Below are positions 3,110 to 29,999 of a DNA stretch of 64,000 nt, in pieces (the stretch's first letter is position 1; each line of letters begins with the position of its first letter). Under the pieces are notes generated by a model. The model was not told where the DNA came from. It saw only the letters and a program-made list of their open reading frames with translations, and ran no database searches. The DNA is from an uncultured Planctomycetota bacterium (GTDB lineage Bacteria; Planctomycetota; Planctomycetia; Gemmatales; Gemmataceae). The translations under genes were made by a program, and so were the position numbers. The stretch lies in the NCBI GenBank assembly GCA_963849325.1, contig CAWKHF010000002.1:96001-160000 (forward strand). Direction: 5' to 3'.

Positions 3110-5241
3110 CCGACAGACTGTGCTCCGCCGTTTCGGCCGCCGCCGGCGCCAGGGAGGTCGGCATCTCCTCGCCACACAGGTTGAGGGCCATGGTGCCGGC
3201 CAGGGCCGCCATCAACCCCAGCCCTTCGCGCGAGTCTTTTTCGACCGGGTATCCTCCAAAGGTCAGTCGCTGCTCGTCGGCCCCGCGCCAGCACGAGGGA
3301 ATCTCCGTGGAGGAAGACGGCCGTGCCGCCGGCGGCCCGGTGATCGAGCAGACGCGGGTGCTGAGCGTCCCGGGCGAACCAGACGACCCGTTCGGCGGGT
3401 GGAAGTCGCGTTTCCGCAAGCGGTGGAAAATCCGCGTTCACAACGGCCGTGCCCCGCGGCGCCAGCGCCCGCAGTACGGCGGCGCAGGCCTCGACCAGTT
3501 CCGCGGCGTCGGCGACCGCACCGGCGCAATCCAGACATTCGCCCGCTTCGGGCGGGCCGGTCAGCAGGGTCACGTCGCAGCGGTCGCACCCCAGTCCCTC
3601 GGTAAGCAGGTCGCGGGCATCCGCCTCCAGGACGGCGATGTCCACGACGCTGCTGCGCAGCACGGCACCAGCCTTCTGGTGTGCGGTCGCCCCAGGCAGG
3701 ACAATCCGCCGGCCGGCGACGAAAACGCCGTCGCGGCTGGCCCGTCCGACGCGGAAGCCGTGCCGGCTCAACAGCGCCTCCAGGCGCCGTCCCGCCGCCC
3801 GCGTCCGGCCGCCGGTCACGACGAGAACGGGGATGCGGCCATCGCTGCCGGGTGGGAACAGCGTGGCGACGATGGCTTCGCCGACCGGGCGGGTGCTCTC
3901 GACCCACGGCGGCGTATGCAGACCCAGACCGGGTCCGGTGTTGACCTCGACGACGACACCGCCCTGCTCTTCCAGCGGCCGGCCAACGTCCTCGGCCACC
4001 AGGTCCACGCCGGCGACGCGGACCCGCAGCGCCTGGGCGGCGGCCACGGCGCAGGCAGCGACCTGGGGGTGAATGCGCTCGGTCACGTCGCGCAGGCAGC
4101 CGCCGTTCTCGACGTGCGGCGGATTGCGGCGCAGCAGTACGCGCACACCCGCCGGCGGGACCGAATCGGGCGTGTAGCCCTGGGCGGCGAGCACGGCGCA
4201 AGCGACGGCATCGATCCGCAGGCGGCGGAGAGGGAAGGGATAGGCGTCGCCGCGCCGCGGATCGCGGTTCACCGCCTCCACCAGATCGACCACGGCCGAA
4301 AGGCCGTCGCCGACGACGTGCGGCGGCTCGATCCGTGCCACCGCGATCGCGCGGTCATCGACTACCAGCACGCGATGCTCCACCCCGCGAGCGAAACGTT
4401 CGACCAGGACATCGGCGCTCTTCGCCCGCGCCGCCTCGTAGGCGGCGACTACCTGCTCGCGCGTCTGCAGGTCCAGGCCGACTCCCAGGGCGAGGTCGCG
4501 GTCCTGTGGCTTGACGGCGACCGGCAGACCCAGTTCGCGCGCCGCCGACCAGGCGTCCTCGGCATCGCGGACGGGACGGCCCTCCGGGACCGGAACGCCG
4601 GCCTCGCGCAGTAACAACTTGGTCAGGTGCTTGTCGGTCGTGATGGAACGGGCGACGGCGCTGACGTCGTCGGTCTCGGAGGCCAGGCTGCGGCGCTGGC
4701 GGGAACCTTGGCCCAGGAGTAGATAGCGGCCGTCGTCCGGGTTGAGGTGGGTGACCGGAATGCCCCGCGCCTGCGCCGCCTCGACGACGGCTCGCGTACT
4801 CGGCCCCAGGATTTGCTCGTCGGCCAACTCGCGCAAGCGCGCCAGCTCCTCGTTGATGGCGAACGGCCGGTCCTCCAGAGCGGCCCGGCACATCGCCACG
4901 GCTGTTTGCAGGCAGGCCAGACCGACCGGCTCCTCCCGGTATTCGACGGCCACACGGTAGCGGCCCGGTTCCCCTCCTCGCCGCGTCTCGCCGAACGTCA
5001 CCGCGTTGCCGGCCAGCACTTGCAGGTGCAGCACCATCCGCTTAAGAAGGTGGGCCAGGTTGACGCCCTCGCCCGGCTCCGGCGTCAGCGCGGGGAGCCA
5101 GCTCACGAGGCGCTCGACCGCCGCCAGGACTTCGTGTCGCGTCCCGGCGGCCCATCGGCCCAGGTCCACCCCGGCTTCGAGGACCGGACACGTCGCCCAG
5201 ACATTCGGTCCCCGGAGCACTCGCAGTCGCCACAACTCCAT
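3102..5241 (-). CDS. Cyanophycin synthetase-like ATP-grasp protein (CphA2/CphA3-like, degenerate Mur domain); frameshift near 3290
   Basis: [11 protein letters not shown]-domain start, [40 protein letters not shown]-like junction (SDGRIP); the C-terminus continues in ORF 3102..3419. Confidence 0.8.
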
Positions 5242-5446
5242 GTTCGCACCCTTCTCCGCTCGAAAAGCTGCTTGCGGCTTCGCGCCTGCCGCGGCCCGCG
5301 GAGCCGCAAACGGCGTTTGATTCTCTGCGCACCCCTCCGGAATATGCCCATCCGGCCGGAAAACCCGACACAAATTTCGAGGACGCGGAACGTCCATCGC
5401 TTTTCCCTTCGGCTCGTTGTGGCGAGGACGACGAAGGCGACATACA

Positions 5447-6058
5447 ATGGAGCTGTCGGATACCTCCGAGGCTGTGGAGAGACCGAGCTTGTCGCAGGGA
5501 TCGGTTACGCGCTGGATCGCCCAACTGCGGGCCGGGGACCAGGCTGCGGCCAATCCCTTGTGGGGGCGTTATTTCCATCGACTGGTCGCGCTGGCCCGCG
5601 TCCGGCTGCTGCGGGCACCGCGCCGGGCGGCCGACGAGGAAGACGTCGCCCTCAGCGCCTTCCACAGTTTTTGCCGCGCCGCCGAGCGCGGACACTTTCC
5701 CAAGCTGGACGACCGAAACGACCTCTGGCGCTTGCTGGTCGTCCTCACGACCCGCAAGGCGGCGCACCTCGTCCGCGATGGCGGCCGGCTCCGGCGCGGG
5801 GGCGGATTGGCCGCCGAGGACGAGGTGGACCTCGAACGCATCGTGGGCGAGGAGCCGGAGCCGAAGTTCGTCGCCGAGGCCGCCGAGGAGTGTCGCCGCT
5901 TGCTGTGCCGGCTCGGCGACGATACCCTGCGCTCGGTGGCTCTGTGGAAGATGGAAGGATACACCAACGAGGAGATCGCCGTCCGGCTCGGCTGCGTCCT
6001 CCGCACGGTCGAGCGCAAACTGCGATTGATCCGCGAAATCTGGGAGGACGAGCCGTGA
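5447..6058 (+). CDS. ECF-type RNA polymerase sigma factor (planctomycete, kinase-associated)
   Basis: [38 protein letters not shown]...RTVERKL; stop overlaps the kinase start (GTGA). Confidence 0.9.
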
Positions 6059-9000
6059 CGCGGACGGCGACGAGCCGGGTGTCGCATCTGGGTCTGGCGC
6101 GGCGCGTGGACCAGACCTGCGACCGCTTCGAGTCGGCGTGGAAGGCCGCCGGCACCAGCGGCAGCCGGCCCTGCCTCGAAGATTTCCTCACCGACGCGAC
6201 GGAAGCGGAACGCGACGCGCTGGTCCGAGAGCTGATTCCCCTCGACGTTTGTTATCGCCGCCTTCGGGGTGAAGCGGGCACGCCGCAGGATTACGCCAAC
6301 CTCACGCCCACGCCGGACCCCTCGTGGTTGGCCGACGTGATGACGGCCCCCACGGACTCATCTGCCCTCGAGGGGCAAACGACCGTCAACGGGGACGCTC
6401 CCTCCGCGCTGCCGGGTCCGGGCAGTCGTTTCGGCGACTACGAACTGGAGCAGGAGATTGCCCGCGGCGGAATGGGCGTGGTGTATCGGGCGCGGCAGAT
6501 CAGCCTGAACCGTGTCGTCGCCCTGAAAATGATCCGGGAAGGCCGGTTTGCCTCCGCCGAGGAAGTGGAACGCTTTCGTCACGAGGCCGAGTCCGCCGCC
6601 GGCCTGGAGCATCCCCACATCGTGCCGGTCTACGAGGTCGGCGAACACGAGGGCCGCTATTACTTTAGTATGAAGTGGATCGAGGGCGGCAGCCTCTCGG
6701 ACCGGGCCTCGGCGCTGGGCGCCGACCCTCAGGCCGCGGCTCGGTTGGTCGCCCTCGTCGCTCGCGCCGTCCATCACGCCCACCAACACGGCATCCTGCA
6801 CCGCGACCTCAAACCAGCCAACGTCCTTCTGGCGAGCGGAGGGCGTCGCTCGGAAGAGGGGCTCGGAAGAGGGACTAGGGGCGAGGGACTAGGGACTAGG
6901 GAAGAAACCTCTTCCCTAGTCCCTAGTCCCTATTCCCTATTCCCTTCTTCCGAGTTGGTTCCCCTGGTCACCGACTTCGGTCTGGCCAAGCGCGTCGGCG
7001 GCGGCGGGGTGCCGACGCGCTCGGGCGTGATCGTGGGCACGCCCAGCTACATGGCGCCGGAGCAAGCGTCCGGATCGAAGCTGCTGACGACGGCGGTGGA
7101 CGTCTGGGGGCTAGGGGCGATCCTCTATGAATTGCTGACCGGCCGTCCGCCGTTCCAGGGGGAGTGCAGTCTCGAAGTCCTTCGGCAGCGTGCTGGAGGA
7201 AGAACCGCCGCGGCCGCGATCGCTCAATTCCCGCATCAACCGCGACCTGGAGACGATTTGCCTGAAGTGCCTACGCAAGGAGCCGAGCCAGCGCTACAAC
7301 TCGGCGGAGGCGCTGGCCGACGACCTGGCGCGCTGGCTGGGACACGAGCCAATCCAGGCACGTCCGGTCGGGGCCGGCGAGCGGTTGGTCAAATGGGCGC
7401 GGCGGCGGCCGGCGGTTGCGGCCCTGGCCGGGGCGCTGGCGGCCATCACCCTGACCGCCCTGGCCTTGGTTGGCTGGCAGTGGCGCCTGGCCGTGACGGC
7501 GCGACAAGATCTCGAACAGCAGCGCCAACGCGCCGACCGCCTGCTCATTCGCCTGTCTCTGGACCGCGGTCTGAACCTGCTCGAAAAGGGGCAGGTGCCG
7601 CGCGGCATGTTGTGGCTGACGGACACGCTGGAACGGGTCAACGGTGCCGGCTTCCGTGAAGAGGAGGCCGAGGAGCTGCGCCGTCCGCTGCTGGCCAACC
7701 TGGGGGCGTGGTACGACCGACTCTGCTCTTTGCGCATTCTCCTGCCGCACTCCGCCCCACCCCTGGCTGCGGTCTTCCGCGCCGACGGACGGCGCTTGCT
7801 CACCGTCGATAGCGGCGGCCGGCTTCGCTCCTGGGACGTGACCGCCGGCACCGCCGACGAGACGCGCCTGGAACACGGCATGACGGTGCTGTCGGCGGCG
7901 TTCAGCCCCGATGCACGCTGGCTGGCGACCGGCTGCGCCGACGGCACGGTCCAGGTCTGGGACGTCGAGACCGGCGAGGCGCTGCACACGCTGCGGGGAC
8001 CGGCCGGCATGAGGCCCGGTCCGGTTCGCGTCGTGGCCGTCAACGGCTCCGGCTGGGTGGCCGCGGCCGGCGACGACAACCACGCCATCTGGCTCTGGGA
8101 TGCCTCCACCGGCGAATGGCTCGGCCGGCTCGTCGGACACGAAGGACCGATCCACGCCCTGGCCTTCAGTCCCCACGGTGCCGTTCTGGTCTCGGGAGGC
8201 GAAGACAAGACAGTGCGGCTATGGGACACGGCGGCGCGGCGGGCGCTGCGCGTCTGCCACGGTCACGACGCCGGCGAACGATCGCACCTGTACGCCGTCC
8301 GTGCCGTCGCCTTCAGTCCCGACGGCACGCGCGTAGTCAGCGGCAGCGAAGACCACACGGCGCAGGTGTGGGACGTTCGAATCGGGCAAACCGCTGATCC
8401 GCGACGCGGCCACGGGCGCGCCGTCGGCGCTGCCGCATCAGGACACGGTCGGCGCGGTGGCCTTCAGCCCCAGCGGCGCGAAAGTGCTGACCGGCAGTGC
8501 CGACCGCACCGCCCAGCTGTGGGACGCGGCCACGGATCGAGCAGCCGGCCCCCCGGTAGAGCATCCCGGCTCGGTCACGATGGTAGCGTTCGGGCCGGGC
8601 GGCTCCCTGCTGACGGTCGGCCGCGACAACGTCGCCCGCCTTTGGGGCGTCCCGGCCGAGAAGTCCTGGCTGCACGAGTTCCGCCACCCGGAGTACGTCA
8701 TGACGGCAGCCCTCAGCCCGGACGGCCGACGGGCGGCGACGGGCAGCGGCGCCGGTGTCTGGCTATGGGACACGGAGACGGGAAAGTCTCTCGGTCCCCT
8801 CGCCGGCCGCGGCGGCGGATTCGCCCACCAGGACGACGTCTGGACCGTGGCCTTCAGTCCCGATGGCCGGCACGTTCTGACCGCCAGCCGGGACGGAACG
8901 GCGCGGCTGTGGGACGTGGCGACGCGGCGGCCGATCGAATACGAGGCCGGCCGACCCGTGGTGATCGAGATGGGCCAGCGCGGCCGGGCGGCGGCCTTCA

Positions 9001-9746
9001 CGGCGGACGGCCGGCACATCTTGACGGGGGCCGGCAATGTGGTGGGAGAGAAGACCCGGGGAACGGTCGATCTGTGGGACTGGTCTTCCGGCCCTCCGCG
9101 CGGCCGGACCCTGGAGCAGGGCGAGATCGTCTGGCAGGTGGCTTGCAGCTCCGACCGCCGCATGGCGGCGGTCGCCGACGGCGACGACACCGTCCGCTTG
9201 TGGGATCTGGAGCTGGGCCAGCCCTTCGGCCCGCCGCTGGAGCACCACAATCGCGTCGTCGCTCTCGATTTCAGCCCGGACGGCCGGCTTCTCGCCACCG
9301 GCAGCACCGACAAGACGGCGCGCGTCTGGGACGTCGCCACCGGCCGAGCGGTCGGCGAACCGTTCGATCACGTCGGCGCGGTGTGGGGCGTGGCCTTCAC
9401 CGACACACGAACCCTGGCGACGGCGTGCCGCGATGGACGACTACGCCTTTGGGATCTGCCGACGCGGACACCCATCGGCCCGCCGTGGCGCCACCAGGGC
9501 ATCGTCTGGACGGTGGCGTGCCATCCGGAAAGCCGGACCCTGCTGACCGGCAGCGAGGACCGCACGGCCCGCCTCTGGCGCATTCCGCTGCCGTGGCCCA
9601 ACGATGCCCGTCGCGTCCGCCTGTGTGTCGAGGTCAGCACCGGGCTGGAACTGGACAGCAACGGCGTGGTTCGCTGGCTGGACGTCTCCGCCTGGCAACG
9701 CCGCCGCCGATCCCTGGCGGAGCGCGGCGGCTGCCCCGCTCCCTAA
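6055..9746 (+). CDS. Ser/Thr protein kinase with TM segment and WD40 repeats; frameshifts near 7190 and 8400
   Basis: [41 protein letters not shown], then many WD40 repeats spread over three ORFs. Confidence 0.9.
6862..6954. repeat. Heptamer hairpin element (GGGACTA)n ... (TAGTCCC/TATTCCC)n, in-frame within the kinase
   Basis: Outer inverted repeat ctcggaaga/tcttccgag encloses inverted GGGACTA tandems; 93 bp. Confidence 0.85.
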
Positions 9747-9756
9747 CGGTCGCGGC
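9736..9756. repeat. Half copy of REP-like family C (CCGCTCCCTAACGGTCGCGGC)
   Basis: Identical to the right arm of the 29232-29289 palindrome; contains the kinase TAA stop. Confidence 0.7.
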
Positions 9757-9780
9757 GAGGGATCTTGCGCCGAGCGCGGA

Positions 9781-10728
9781 TCAATAATCCGGAATCGGCT
9801 GGCCGTCGGAGATGTTCGCCAACAGCGCCAGCGTGTTCGGGTCCGTGTTGATCGAGATCGACCGTACGCCGCCGTCTCCCATGACGAACTGGCAAACTCC
9901 CGTGTGATAGCCGCCGAAGCTGGCCGTACCGTCCCTCGGCGTGCGGGCCAGCGGATAATTCGGCCCGGCGGAGCGACTGGAGCAGACCCAGTAATCGCCG
10001 TTGTACAGCGAGCAGTCCAGCACTCCTCGGCCGAAGTTCCCCAGCTGCACGTGCTTGTCGCCGGCGAAGAGCGTGTTGCTCAGTCCATCGGTGATCTGGG
10101 CGAAGGTGATGGAGCCGAGCGCCTTGCCGTACTGATTGGTGGCGGCCCGGAAGGCGCCGTTGTAGACGGAGCCGTCGCAGTCGGTGCCGTCGCAGTTGTC
10201 GGTGCCGGTGCAGGTGGCGTAATCCCCCAGCGCCCCCGGTACGAACGGCCCGAGGGTCAAGCCGATGTCGTCGTTCTGATCGCCGGAGATGCTCGCCTGG
10301 GGAGGGGTCTGCGCCGTCCGCCGCGCGGGACAAAAGTAGGTGGGCACCTGCGTCAGGCGAGCGACGTCGGACTGATCGTAGTAAATAAGGGCCAGGTCCC
10401 ACTGCCGGTACAGGTTCCCCTGCTCCAGGTAGGGCAGCAGCAGGACGGCCCAGGTCGCGTGCAGGTCGCTGAGGCGGTTGGGAGGGAGCTTGTCGAAATC
10501 GCCGTGGTACATCTGGATGGCCAGGCCGATTTGCTTGAGATTGTTGGCGCACTGAATCCGTGCGGCGGCCTCGCGCACTTTCTGCACCGCCGGCAGCAAC
10601 AGTGCCATCAGCATCGCCACGACCGCCAGGACCACCAGCAGCTCGATCAGCGTGAACCCGACTCTCGCGGATCGGCGCGAGCGGTGACACGGCTTCGTAT
10701 CGATCGTTCGCACGGCACGGGGAAACAT
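9781..10728 (-). CDS. DUF1559 prepilin-type N-terminal cleavage/methylation protein
   Basis: [45 protein letters not shown]9-DG ([13 protein letters not shown]). Confidence 0.93.
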
Positions 10729-24804: not shown

Positions 24805-25149
24805 GTGGCGGGCCAGAATTTTACGAGTGAACGCATCCGCATTCGGATGGAAGCCTACGATCACGAAGTGCTGGATCGCACCGCGCAGGAGATCGTGGAC
24901 ACGGCGGAAAAGACCGGCGCCATGGTGCATGGCCCGATTCCTCTGCCGACCCGCATCGAACGGTACACCGTGCTGCGGAGTCCGCACATTGACCGCAAAT
25001 CGCGCGAGCAGTTTGAAATCCGCACGCACAAGCGTTTGGTGGACATTCTGCAGCCGACCGGCAAGACCATCGAAGCGCTCAACAAGGGTCTGAGCCTGCC
25101 GCCCGGCGTGGACATCAAGATCCGCGTCCTGGCCGGGACGGCCTCCTGA
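24805..25149 (+). CDS. rpsJ: 30S ribosomal protein S10
   Basis: [39 protein letters not shown]. Confidence 0.97.
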
Positions 25150-25286
25150 GCGCGGCCGACTCGTCTCGATCCATTGGCGTGCCGCGAAACGGTCCCTCGA
25201 CTGGGGGATGCGTCGGGCCGAGTAATAGCGGCGACACGTTTGCGGACTGGCATTTCCTCCGAAGACGTTCGGAGGAGGGTTGAAAC
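25150..25286 (+). promoter_or_regulatory. Candidate structured cis-regulatory RNA between rpsJ and rplD
   Basis: Several hairpins, including TCCTCCGAA-GACG-TTCGGAGGA (25255-25276) covering the rplD SD. Confidence 0.45.
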
Positions 25287-25937
25287 ATGCTGACATTGAA
25301 CGTTTACAATCGGCAGGGCGATTCGGTCGGCACGGTGCAGGTGGACCCCGACGAGTTCGGCGGCACCGTCAACAAGCAACTGCTGCACGACGTTGTCGTG
25401 ATGCACCTGGCCAACCAGCGTGCCGGCACGCACTCGACGCTGCGGCGCGGCGAGGTGTCCGGCAGCACCAAGAAACTGTTCCGCCAGAAGGGCACCGGCA
25501 ACGCCCGCGTCGGTCCCCGGCGCACCAACAAGCGCCGCGGCGGCGGCACCAGCAAAGGTCCGAAGCCGCGCGACTACGAATATCATCTGCCCAAGAAGGC
25601 CGTCCGCGCCGCCACCCGCATGGCCATCCTCAGCAAGTTCCAGGACAACGAAGCCCTCATCCTCGACGACCTGGCCCTGACCGAGATCAAGACCAAGCAG
25701 GTCGCCGGTCTGCTCAAGGCGCTGAAGCTGCAAGGCACGACTTGCCTGGTGGGCACCAAGGACTACGACAAAAACGTGTATCTGTCGTCGCGCAACATCC
25801 CGGAAGTCGAGGTGCTGCCGGCGTCGCAGTTCAACGCCTACACCGTGCTGCGGCAAAAACGACTGCTTTTGACCCGTGCCGCGCTGGACGAGTTGCGTCA
25901 AGGCAGTTCCAAGGCCAAGAGAGCGGAAGCGAAGTAA
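25287..25937 (+). CDS. rplD: 50S ribosomal protein L4
   Basis: [31 protein letters not shown]. Confidence 0.97.
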
Positions 25938-26291: not shown

Positions 26292-26362
26292 AGCTCTCAG
26301 CGATCAGCGGTCAGCAATCAGCAAAACAAAAGCTGACCGCTGATCGCTGAGAGCTGACCGCT
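26292..26362. repeat. Heptamer hairpin element (AGCnnTC)n ... (GCTGAnn)n
   Basis: agctctc agcgatc agcggtc agcaatc agc aaaacaaaa gctgacc gctgatc gctgaga gctgacc. Confidence 0.85.
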
Positions 26363-27252: not shown

Positions 27253-27280
27253 TGGACACGATTGGGAAACGCCCTATAAT
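27253..27280 (+). promoter_or_regulatory. Putative internal sigma70 promoter upstream of rpsS
   Basis: TGGACA-16nt-TATAAT in the rplB-rpsS spacer. Confidence 0.55.
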
Positions 27281-27305: not shown

Positions 27306-27578
27306 ATGAGCCGGTCTCTCAAAAAAGGCCCCTACGTGGACGAACGCCTGATCGCCAAGGTCGAGCGCAACCAGCGCACGGGCAACCGAGAGCCGATCAA
27401 GACGTGGTTGCGCGACTGCACGATCGTGCCCGAGTTCGTCCAGATGACGTTCCTCATTCACAACGGCAAGAACTTCCTTCGCCTGTACGTGACCGAGGAC
27501 ATGGTTGGCCACAAGCTCGGCGAATTTTCGCCAACGCGGATCTTCAAAGGGCACAGCGGCGGCAAGGGCAAGAAGTAA
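27306..27578 (+). CDS. rpsS: 30S ribosomal protein S19
   Basis: [29 protein letters not shown]. Confidence 0.98.
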
Positions 27579-27583
27579 TGGAT

Positions 27584-27655
27584 CCCGGGGTGGAGCAGTG
27601 GTAGCTCGCCAGGCTCATAACCTGGAGGTCGCTGGTTCGAGTCCAGCCCCCGGAA
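27584..27655 (+). tRNA. tRNA-Met(CAT), initiator type (fMet)
   Basis: Cloverleaf CCCGGGG TG GAGC AGTGGTA GCTC G CCAGG CTCATAA CCTGG AGGTC GCTGG TTCGAGT CCAGC CCCCGGA A; C1xA72 mismatch, A11-U24 pair; CCA not encoded. Confidence 0.93.
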
Positions 27656-27660
27656 ATGAC

Positions 27661-28029
27661 TTACGACAAATGAATGATGCCTGCGTGAAGCTTGGCGTGA
27701 CAGTTATGGCACAGGCAAACGCACTTGGCTAATTCGGCGGCGAGACGAGTGAGAGAAATAGCCCGAGCATAGGCGTTGCCAATGCTGAATTCCTTCTTAG
27801 CTGGTTCTCGGTGGTGGAAGCTCAGGCAGCAAGGTTCTTTCTCTCCGCAGAGAGTACAGCCGCCCGCCTTGGCTTCGCTGATTCGTTGCTGAATCACCAC
27901 ACGAGCTTTGGCTTTGTTCATTTGCACAGCCCGGCGTTGGGCTTGTCGGTACTCCGGATCGGTTTGATAACGGATTCGCATGTATTCGGCTATCTTGGCG
28001 CGGCGGACGACAGGATCCTTGTAAGGCAT
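27661..28029 (-). CDS. Small HNH endonuclease-like protein (phage-type, Zn-binding)
   Basis: Basic helical N-terminus, then CTLCGE...CLSFHHREP..K...ELAKCVCLCHNCHAKLH; GGAGG before ATG 28029; AT-richer codon usage. Confidence 0.85.
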   Translation of the reverse strand: MPYKDPVVRRAKIAEYMRIRYQTDPEYRQAQRRAVQMNKAKARVVIQQRISEAKAGGCTLCGEKEPCCLSFHHREPAKKEFSIGNAYARAISLTRLAAELAKCVCLCHNCHAKLHAGIIHLS

Positions 28030-28056
28030 GGGGAACCCTCCAAAATGGTTCCCCAT
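28028..28056 (-). promoter_or_regulatory. Hairpin covering the SD and start codon of the HNH gene
   Basis: Perfect 10-bp stem ATGGGGAACC / GGTTCCCCAT with 9-nt loop. Confidence 0.6.
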
Positions 28057-28133
28057 AGTATACGCGGGACAGGGGTAAAGCCTACTAGCGAAAGCCGTGT
28101 GGCCTCGGCCGCATAACGGGTGGAACGACAGTC

Positions 28134-28483
28134 ATGGAATACAAAGCCAGTCATCGTCATGCCGACATGTCGCCGCGGAAGATTCGGCCGTTCGCCACGC
28201 TCATCCGCGGCCGCTCCGCCGACGAGCGCTGGAATTGTTGCGCTTCCTGCCCAACAAGAGCGCGCGTCTGCTGGAGCAGGTGCTCAAGAGCGCCCTGGGC
28301 AACGCCGAGGATCGCGGCGCCCGCGACATCGACGACCTTGTTGTCATCGAGTCGTGCGTGGATGGCGGGCCGATCATGAAACGGATCATGCCGCGAGCGC
28401 GCGGTACGGCATACCCGATCAAACGGCGTTATTCGCACATTCGCGTGACGCTGTCGGACCTGGAAGAAACTGCCGGGACGTAA
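28134..28483 (+). CDS. rplV: 50S ribosomal protein L22; frameshift near 28227
   Basis: MEYKASHRHADMSPRKIR, then ALELLRFLPNKSAR...VDGGPIMKR..PRARG in another frame. Confidence 0.93.
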
Positions 28484-29770: not shown

Positions 29771-29999
29771 ATGAAGCCGGCTGAATTTCGCGGCCAGAGC
29801 GACGAACACCTGGCCCTGACGCTCAAGGAAACCGTCAAGAACCTGTTCCACCTGCGTTTCCAGTCGGCCACCGAACGCCTGGAGACGCCCAGCGAAATCC
29901 GCAAGGCGCAAGCAAGACGTCGCCCGCATCAAGACCATCCAGCGCGAACGCGAGTTGGCCGCCCAGAAGACCGCCGAGGGAGCGAAGAGCAATGGCTGA
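29771..29999 (+). CDS. rpmC: 50S ribosomal protein L29; frameshift near 29908
   Basis: [21 protein letters not shown], then [15 protein letters not shown] in another frame. Confidence 0.9.

Follow-up and report, generated by a model that had tools for sequence, protein, structure and literature searches.

Why does a nuclease gene of a kind found among phage tRNA genes lie inside a ribosomal protein operon of a bacterium, and did it bring the adjacent tRNA gene with it? The question is raised by a 64-kb stretch of contig CAWKHF010000002.1, from an uncultured Planctomycetota bacterium of the family Gemmataceae (hereafter the window; coordinates are positions of the window unless the locus of a relative or phage is named). 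Its S10 cluster runs rpsJ, rplD, rplW, rplB, rpsS, a gap, rplV, rpsC, rplP, rpmC, rpsQ, and rplN. The gap between rpsS and rplV (27579-28133, 555 nt, with the rplV ATG at 28134) holds a tRNA gene and, convergent with it, a small open reading frame (ORF) for an HNH endonuclease. We found that the tRNA is probably an old resident of this spacer, while the ~464 nt behind it are an insertion carrying the nuclease gene, which on balance we take for a free-standing homing-type gene aimed at the tRNA gene region. The features of the locus are as follows.

27253..27280, plus strand: sigma-70-like promoter site, TGGACA-16-TATAAT (identified by consensus alone, at 11 of 12 positions)
27306..27578, plus strand: rpsS, ribosomal protein S19 (Pfam Ribosomal_S19, E 1.2e-34)
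27584..27655, plus strand: initiator-type tRNA-Met(CAU) (Rfam tRNA, 66.8 bits, E 1.5e-13; ARAGORN)
27657..28120, no strand: inserted block of ~464 nt (alignment with the HNH-less loci L004, L002, and L005)
27661..28029, minus strand: free-standing HNH endonuclease gene, 122 amino acids (aa), convergent with the tRNA (PHROG, AlphaFold2, BFVD)
28028..28056, minus strand: hairpin spanning the ribosome-binding site and start codon of the HNH gene (inverted repeat, folding energy)
28134..28483, plus strand: rplV, ribosomal protein L22 (Pfam Ribosomal_L22; in two frames, with a base missing near 28224)

An initial annotation, made before any database search, had placed a tRNA-Met(CAT) 5 nt after the rpsS stop in a gap of about 555 bp, and the coordinates from Pfam, Rfam, and ARAGORN confirm it. 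The same holds for the convergent 122-aa HNH-like ORF, which stops 5 nt short of the tRNA 3' end and whose CxxC...HH...CxxCH motifs proved to be conserved. Read from its first ATG, the minus-strand ORF spans 27661-28056 (131 aa), and from the second, 27661-28029 (122 aa); we adopted the shorter form because the ten closest homologs measure 122 to 124 aa. The ORF stands alone in an intergenic position, inside neither an intron nor an intein, and the neighboring tRNA gene is uninterrupted. Its reputed richness in AT was borne out both by GC content (0.54 to 0.555 in 200-nt windows over 27600-28099, against 0.58 to 0.725 in the flanks) and by GC at third codon positions (GC3, 0.577 against 0.79 to 0.92 in eight ribosomal protein genes). 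No other of the 57 window ORFs with 100 aa or more is as low in GC, a ranking made by total GC only, the GC3 ranking of greedy ORFs being contaminated by spurious antisense ORFs. Protein homologs down to E 2e-54 and a best PHROG match of E 3.8e-24 show that it is not a chance ORF.

The state of the same interval in relatives was surveyed by a genome scan with the neighboring L4 protein, keeping the best 80 of 198 loci (coded L0xx), which are Gemmataceae- or Gemmatales-type Planctomycetota with L4 identities of 93 to 61%. S19, L22, L2, S3, and the HNH protein were located by tblastn and tRNAs by ARAGORN. The rpsS-rplV interval is complete in 69 loci; the other 11 end before it is complete, and three of these (L012, L029, and L073) still show the tRNA after rpsS. 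Scoring of the complete intervals, which had been proposed with the initial annotation, gave four states.

Intact tRNA-Met(CAU) alone: 46 of 69 loci, gaps of ~104-447 nt
tRNA with an HNH homolog: 1 of 69 loci (L023)
tRNA split in its anticodon loop by an intron: 4 of 69 loci (L051, L055, L061, and L072)
tRNA absent: 18 of 69 loci, gaps of ~17-171 nt

The tRNA is present, then, in 51 of the 69 intervals, 50 of them without HNH. In an alignment of 50 intact copies, from the window and 49 related loci, no difference occurs before the variable loop (the first 48 nt agree in 50 of 50), and the compensated changes that do occur are confined to the T arm. Not one base separates the window tRNA from that of the HNH-less L004, T-arm variant included, and the tRNA of L002 is nearly identical; the window copy also matches the local GC content, which the insert does not. 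Because the tRNA occurs alone in so many relatives and the window copy equals that of an HNH-less one, we regard it as a resident of the spacer and not as part of a mobile cassette; it is a widespread and probably ancestral resident of the Gemmataceae rpsS-rplV spacer. The selfish homing-type cassette of the initial annotation survives in half: the HNH gene is sporadic and homing-like, while its union with the tRNA in one cassette had to be given up, only the stretch behind the tRNA having been inserted.

The alignment of intervals delimits this insert. In L004, L002, and L005 a stretch of ~20 nt, which includes a Shine-Dalgarno sequence, separates the tRNA from the rplV ATG; the window carries ~464 extra nt (~27657-28120) in this tRNA-rplV spacer, with edges that are approximate within a few nucleotides. 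None of the 80 loci has a DNA-level match to the insert. The insertion point is apparently nearer the rplV start in L023 than in the window, and the short similarities of the left junction to the spacer or the rplV start in both are too short for a target duplication. No direct repeats were found flanking the insert, no duplicated tRNA 3' end across the whole window when up to 5 mismatches were allowed, no other HNH copy in the window, and no terminator-like site in the rpsS-rplV gap, in agreement with the earlier remark that integrase, terminal repeat, duplicated tRNA 3' end, and terminator are all missing from the locus. An integrase has no room here because ribosomal protein genes lie on both sides. 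Insertion by a tRNA-targeting integrase was accordingly considered and rejected, without flanking repeats, tRNA 3'-end duplication, or terminators to speak for it. As the gap has no terminator, read-through to rplV is plausible.

A consensus scan of the minus strand found no promoter for the HNH gene. A perfect 10-nt inverted repeat with a 9-nt loop covers its Shine-Dalgarno sequence GGAGG (28041-28037) and ATG (28029-28027); the folding energy of this start-codon hairpin is -22.8 kcal/mol (z -2.15), a value equaled by 6 of 200 shuffled sequences.

We placed these states on a tree of concatenated L4, L2, S19, and S3 (73 rows, 810 columns; quick IQ-TREE run under LG+G4, with SH-aLRT support only). 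The window falls in a 100%-supported clade of seven, together with L003 (no tRNA) and L002 and L004 to L007 (tRNA only), and the HNH gene is missing from all six clade-mates. Elsewhere among the 80 loci an HNH homolog occurs only in L023, at 40% identity, likewise antisense and ending 4 nt from the tRNA; L023 belongs to the other half of the tree, as sister of the HNH-less L050 (97% support). The state with tRNA and HNH requires two changes on the tree, and the genes of the window and L023 were either placed on two occasions or derive from a single old gain with many later losses. Such sporadic occurrence among relatives fits a homing-type gene. Presence or absence of the tRNA itself requires at least eight changes, from which it follows that the spacer has been unstable across the history of the family. 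L003, the nearest relative of the window, has neither the tRNA nor a remnant of it in a 29-nt spacer (9328-9359). In L013, ARAGORN gives 30 tRNA genes in a 14.6-kb locus, that is, a tRNA array beside the S10 cluster.

What kind of protein the insert encodes is answered most clearly by phage collections. Nine of the 14 PHROG matches are HNH endonuclease families, the best being phrog_3106 (E 3.8e-24), phrog_2255 (E 1.6e-22), and phrog_35854 (E 4.7e-14). In the AlphaFold2 model (pLDDT 93.4), two long helices at the N terminus precede a strand-strand-helix core (strands 69-73 and 103-107, then helix 108-115), as in the beta-beta-alpha-metal fold of HNH nucleases, and Foldseek against BFVD returned 43 matches at E≤0.001, nearly all of them phage HNH endonucleases, with TM of about 0.6 to 0.74. 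A profile search of the PDB gave only McrA (E 0.0068), over the CVxLCxNCH stretch. Over 26 aligned sequences, C58, H72, H73, C103, C107, N109, C110, H111, and H115 are invariant and C61 is kept in ≥90%; the role of each would be that assigned by the general HNH motif. In a protein set of 5.8 billion clusters only 29 homologs were found at E≤0.01, among them ten of 122 to 124 aa at 67 to 77% identity and a 79-aa protein, P0012, at 87%. Longer or fused forms amount to one distant protein at E≤0.001 (31% identity) among 391 candidates, and the nearest Atlas clusters are 79 to 93% viral. Judged by its sequence and modeled fold, the product is an intact phage-type HNH nuclease, and the PHROG and BFVD matches uphold the earlier assignment to HNH nucleases of phage type. 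PADLOC returned only mREase_IV (McrA-type) at E 0.15, too weak a match for a known defense component, a candidate that we rejected.

The phage relatives also connect the family with tRNA genes. By tblastn, 425 phage records match the HNH protein, all below 60% identity. The 25 best rows represent 18 phages, 13 of which were examined by ARAGORN; five phages (six rows), whose scores duplicated an examined neighbor, were left out (Janet, DU_PP_IV, LNA1, LF82P5 with two records, and GE_vB_7A), and the other six rows are second records of examined phages. In 11 of the 13, the start of a same-strand tRNA gene falls in the range from 10 nt before the HNH stop to 23 nt after it, and the tRNA is usually one of an array. 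In Goe5, 106 nt separate the end of a tRNA from the HNH start downstream, and in one halovirus ARAGORN found no tRNA by the HNH gene. Among 60 evenly spread rows, eight have a tRNA annotated under the match itself. With a tRNA starting at the HNH stop in 11 of 13 phages, the family is tied to tRNA genes, as had been supposed at the outset from the habits of phage HNH genes. Two metagenomic homologs, P0014 ('GSIP') and P0017 ('AGSIPA'), carry ORF extensions that could be translated T arms. In the Synechococcus phage S-SRM01 (L090, 821-894), the HNH homolog and a tRNA-Met(CAT) gene overlap by 10 nt, at the start of the tRNA.

The tRNA of the window is of the initiator type. ARAGORN locates it at 27583-27656, with anticodon CAT and as the sole tRNA of the 64 kb; CCA is not encoded. 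Its D stem, GAGC/GCUC, provides A11:U24, a criterion of bacterial initiator tRNAs, and this pair is kept in 50 of 50 copies. So are C1xA72, at a pair that Rfam marks as non-standard, and an anticodon stem of A29:U41, G30:C40, and G31:C39 (au/GC/GC), in which two of the three pairs of the canonical three-G:C rule (29:41, 30:40, 31:39) are G:C. Bacterial initiators are marked by a 1:72 mismatch, which is a formylation determinant, and by three G:C pairs in the anticodon stem, and au/GC/GC is a natural initiator variant of alpha-proteobacteria and some mycoplasmas, as stated in PMC5389676. Since au/GC/GC is documented in initiators, A29:U41 does not exclude initiator membership. The initiator type named by the initial annotation thus stands on C1xA72, A11:U24, and G30:C40/G31:C39, and from these positions we assign the gene to the initiator tRNA(fMet) class, in its au/GC/GC form. 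Presumably it is transcribed together with the genes for ribosomal proteins, the tRNA then being released by tRNA processing. The initial annotation had also named an outcome that would tell against it, an ORF lacking the HNH fold beside a tRNA fixed and already described at this position: the fold is present, and the tRNA is widespread but not fixed, and no paper describing a tRNA between rpsS and rplV in Planctomycetes was found, subscription journals lying outside the coverage.

A second kind of element has entered the same gene. In four loci the tRNA is split between U33 and C34 by the following inserts.

L051, 6951-7634: 684 nt
L055, 9456-10139: 684 nt
L061, 9488-10160: 673 nt
L072, 9356-9718: 363 nt

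The full Rfam model Intron_gpI matched at 46.2 and 43.9 bits (E 1.8e-10 and 5.3e-10), under the curated cut-off of 50; these matches came from targeted E-value searches, and at gathering thresholds Rfam reports no intron in L051, L061, L072, or L023. The intron ORF of L051, L055, and L061 encodes a PD-(D/E)XK protein of 149 to 175 aa (Pfam PDDEXK_5, E 1.1e-48; PDB 2ost, E 1e-62); in L072 it is degraded. The structure 2ost, whose PDB table entry reads 'Putative endonuclease', we take to be I-Ssp6803I, the endonuclease of the cyanobacterial tRNA-fMet intron. An intron of this type supports the initiator identity of the tRNA and makes the gene a recurrent homing target in the family. We found no earlier report of such a tRNA intron element in Planctomycetota.

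How, then, did the HNH gene reach the spacer? The explanation that we favor, and hold to be rather probable, is that of a free-standing homing-type HNH endonuclease gene aimed at the tRNA gene region, for which cleavage and homing are what we infer. It draws on the anatomy of the locus, the family membership of the protein, its sporadic distribution, the foreign composition and intact catalytic motifs of the gene, and the association of its family with tRNA genes. On alleles that lack the HNH gene, the enzyme would make a cut within or next to the tRNA gene, which is highly conserved, or the spacer; after DNA exchange between strains, repair from the HNH-bearing copy would install the gene. 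The carrier allele would be protected by its own insertion or by local sequence differences. Antisense placement may avoid translation from the operon mRNA, and the hairpin over the ribosome-binding site and start codon may limit translation further, with the result that the gene would be weakly expressed in an essential operon that is itself heavily transcribed.

Several results weigh against this explanation. A sliding 400-nt blastn across 24.8-31.2 kb showed no co-conversion tract and no shift of the nearest relative around the insert, a test that is weak because the nearest relatives are only ~80-90% identical in DNA. For the HNH ORF, Pfam-A returned no family at E≤1 and NCBIfam returned none. 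Foldseek against the PDB gave nothing at E≤0.001; its top fold matches (E 0.4 to 1.4) are HNH nucleases, namely T5 SciA, Gme HNH 4h9d, Cap5, and McrA, and the poor scores are probably due to the long N-terminal helical hairpin. The ten close homologs at 67 to 77% identity, together with P0012, could be a vertically inherited group. If the target lay inside the tRNA, protection of the carrier would be unexplained, as its tRNA equals that of the HNH-less L004. The phage genes are co-oriented with the tRNA and 5' of it, whereas the window gene is convergent and 3'. Finally, there are 2 carriers in 70 complete intervals, so that recurrence rests on n=2.

The alternative that fares best, though we think it unlikely, is that the gene is a passenger or relic, which arrived a single time, for example from a phage by illegitimate recombination beside the tRNA, and is now inert or decaying and does not home. 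No sign of activity and no co-conversion signal was found, as this alternative would have it. The shorter homologs P0012 (79 aa) and P0027 (74 aa) could be decayed copies, and the sister element at the site decays as well, with its ORF degraded in L072. However, P0012 starts with V and may be cut by a contig end, and the window ORF is full length, with all invariant catalytic and zinc-binding residues kept over 26 sequences at 40 to 77% identity; it is also intact although neighboring genes in the same assembly have indels. Were the gene a mere passenger, the finding would be a modest annotation note.

It is improbable that the gene serves the host, either as a nuclease or through an antisense transcript that was co-opted for tuning rplV and downstream genes or the initiator tRNA, or for defense or competition. 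The antisense position in an essential, highly expressed operon, the hairpin over the start, and the two independent antisense placements that the window and L023 would represent speak for such a role. The gene is nevertheless missing from 68 of the 69 complete intervals and is therefore dispensable for operon function, the McrA-type PADLOC match mentioned above is weak (E 0.15), and there is no partner gene, both neighbors being ribosomal protein genes.

Joint arrival of tRNA and HNH gene as a single mobile unit we regard as very improbable: the two are 5 nt apart and the nearest relative L003 has neither, but the tRNA occupies the site without HNH in 50 relatives (46 with an intact gene, 4 with the intron), equals that of the clade-mate L004 and nearly that of L002, and has the local GC content that the insert lacks. 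A wrong join by the assembler is hardly credible. The assembly does have indel errors, seen as frameshifts in rplV and rpmC, but indels cannot make a 464-nt insert with an intact conserved ORF. L023, which was assembled independently, repeats the arrangement with a gene of 40% identity, and on both sides of the insert the sequence continues collinearly, into rpsS on one and rplV on the other, in a contig whose reported length is 973 kb.

The frameshifts themselves lie close to the insert. In rplV, the Pfam L22 model is matched in two reading frames, that of 28134 (model positions 1-39) and that of 28097 (model positions 27-103); one G is absent near 28224, where the window reads GACGAGC and 6 of 6 aligned relatives read GA[GT]GAGGC or GAAGAGGC. 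In rpmC (L29, 29771-30000) the frame changes near 29905, and L29 resumes in the +1 frame after '...SEIRKA'. Two essential genes broken within 2 kb suggest assembly indel errors over biology, and we consider both frameshifts as probably of that origin. Farther away, two long overlapping same-strand ORFs (4747-7659 and 7190-9787, GC3 0.68 and 0.71) may be one large gene broken by more indels.

Other parts of the S10 cluster deserve mention. The promoter-like site of the window lies 26 nt 5' of rpsS, and a similar site (TGGAC[AG]-16-TAnAAT) is found ~28-38 nt before rpsS in 26 of 73 loci, whether the tRNA is present or absent; this hints at an internal promoter splitting the cluster. At 24805-25937, rpsJ (S10) is followed after 137 nt by rplD (L4), and rplC (L3) is missing from its usual place between the two. 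The rplW-rplB spacer holds a long, nearly perfect hairpin (26295-26352), which came up as a chance-level microRNA model match (26.4 bits against a cut-off of 82).

Taken together, the HNH gene and the intron suggest a broader reading, which we put forward only tentatively: the ~100 bp around the S10-operon initiator tRNA may be a standing battleground of homing elements in a cellular lineage, invaded repeatedly by two unrelated nuclease families, of which the HNH type might recognize tRNA-gene DNA as such. As part of the same tentative proposal, one of these families would be a PD-(D/E)XK enzyme encoded by a group I intron, and the other an HNH enzyme that is free-standing and was taken over from the tRNA arrays of phages. 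If this were true, homing could move pieces of the S10 operon between Gemmataceae species, and it could explain the repeated loss of the tRNA from the spacer (the at least eight changes on the tree). One bacterial family offers a natural series of empty spacers, tRNA only, tRNA with intron and endonuclease, and tRNA with HNH. The series bears on how selfish nucleases exploit an invariant tRNA gene and are tolerated in an essential operon, and on whether they move core genes that serve as phylogenetic markers. An au/GC/GC initiator tRNA embedded in the ribosomal protein operon of many Gemmataceae also couples the initiator tRNA with ribosomal protein synthesis.

Phages and organelles are the textbook homes of free-standing homing endonuclease genes; to our knowledge, such genes have rarely been documented in bacterial chromosomes, and we found no published description of a homing endonuclease in the S10 cluster of Planctomycetes in a search with subscription journals outside its coverage. 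Among the closest known systems is the HNH gene of phage tRNA arrays (PHROG 3106/2255), which belongs to the same protein family (30 to 43% identity by tblastn) and is likewise a small stand-alone ORF with its stop within ~25 nt of a tRNA (11 of 13 phages). It differs in residing in a phage genome, co-oriented with the tRNA and 5' of it, while the window gene resides in a bacterial chromosome, inside the S10 cluster, convergent with the tRNA and 3' of it. In phage T5, the tRNA cluster reportedly contains the HNH-type homing endonucleases F-TflI, II, and IV. Salmonella and Klebsiella phages of Tequintavirus size are among our tblastn matches.

The intron endonuclease I-Ssp6803I and its cyanobacterial tRNA-fMet intron resemble the locus in having an initiator tRNA as target, and the same type of element is present in L051, L055, L061, and L072. 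Unlike the window gene, however, I-Ssp6803I is a PD-(D/E)XK enzyme and is borne by an intron in the anticodon loop, whereas the window tRNA is uninterrupted and the HNH gene lies outside it. The T4 gene mobE is described as a free-standing HNH gene between conserved genes, mobilized with its flanks (PMC2790892). We liken the window gene to it by description, MobE being a phage enzyme encoded beside nrd genes and not beside a tRNA. A further report (PMC2330249) locates F-TflI and F-TflII in the T5 tRNA cluster and describes T4 SegB as a free-standing endonuclease in a tRNA cluster that cleaves tRNA genes at their 3' ends and is missing from related phages. As a free-standing nuclease gene beside a tRNA, SegB is the best functional analogy for the window gene, although it is a GIY-YIG enzyme, is phage-borne, and has an activity demonstrated by experiment where that of the window enzyme is deduced. 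The HNH gene of the window belongs to a known kind, and it is its location, behind an initiator tRNA in an operon of ribosomal proteins, that is unusual and instructive.

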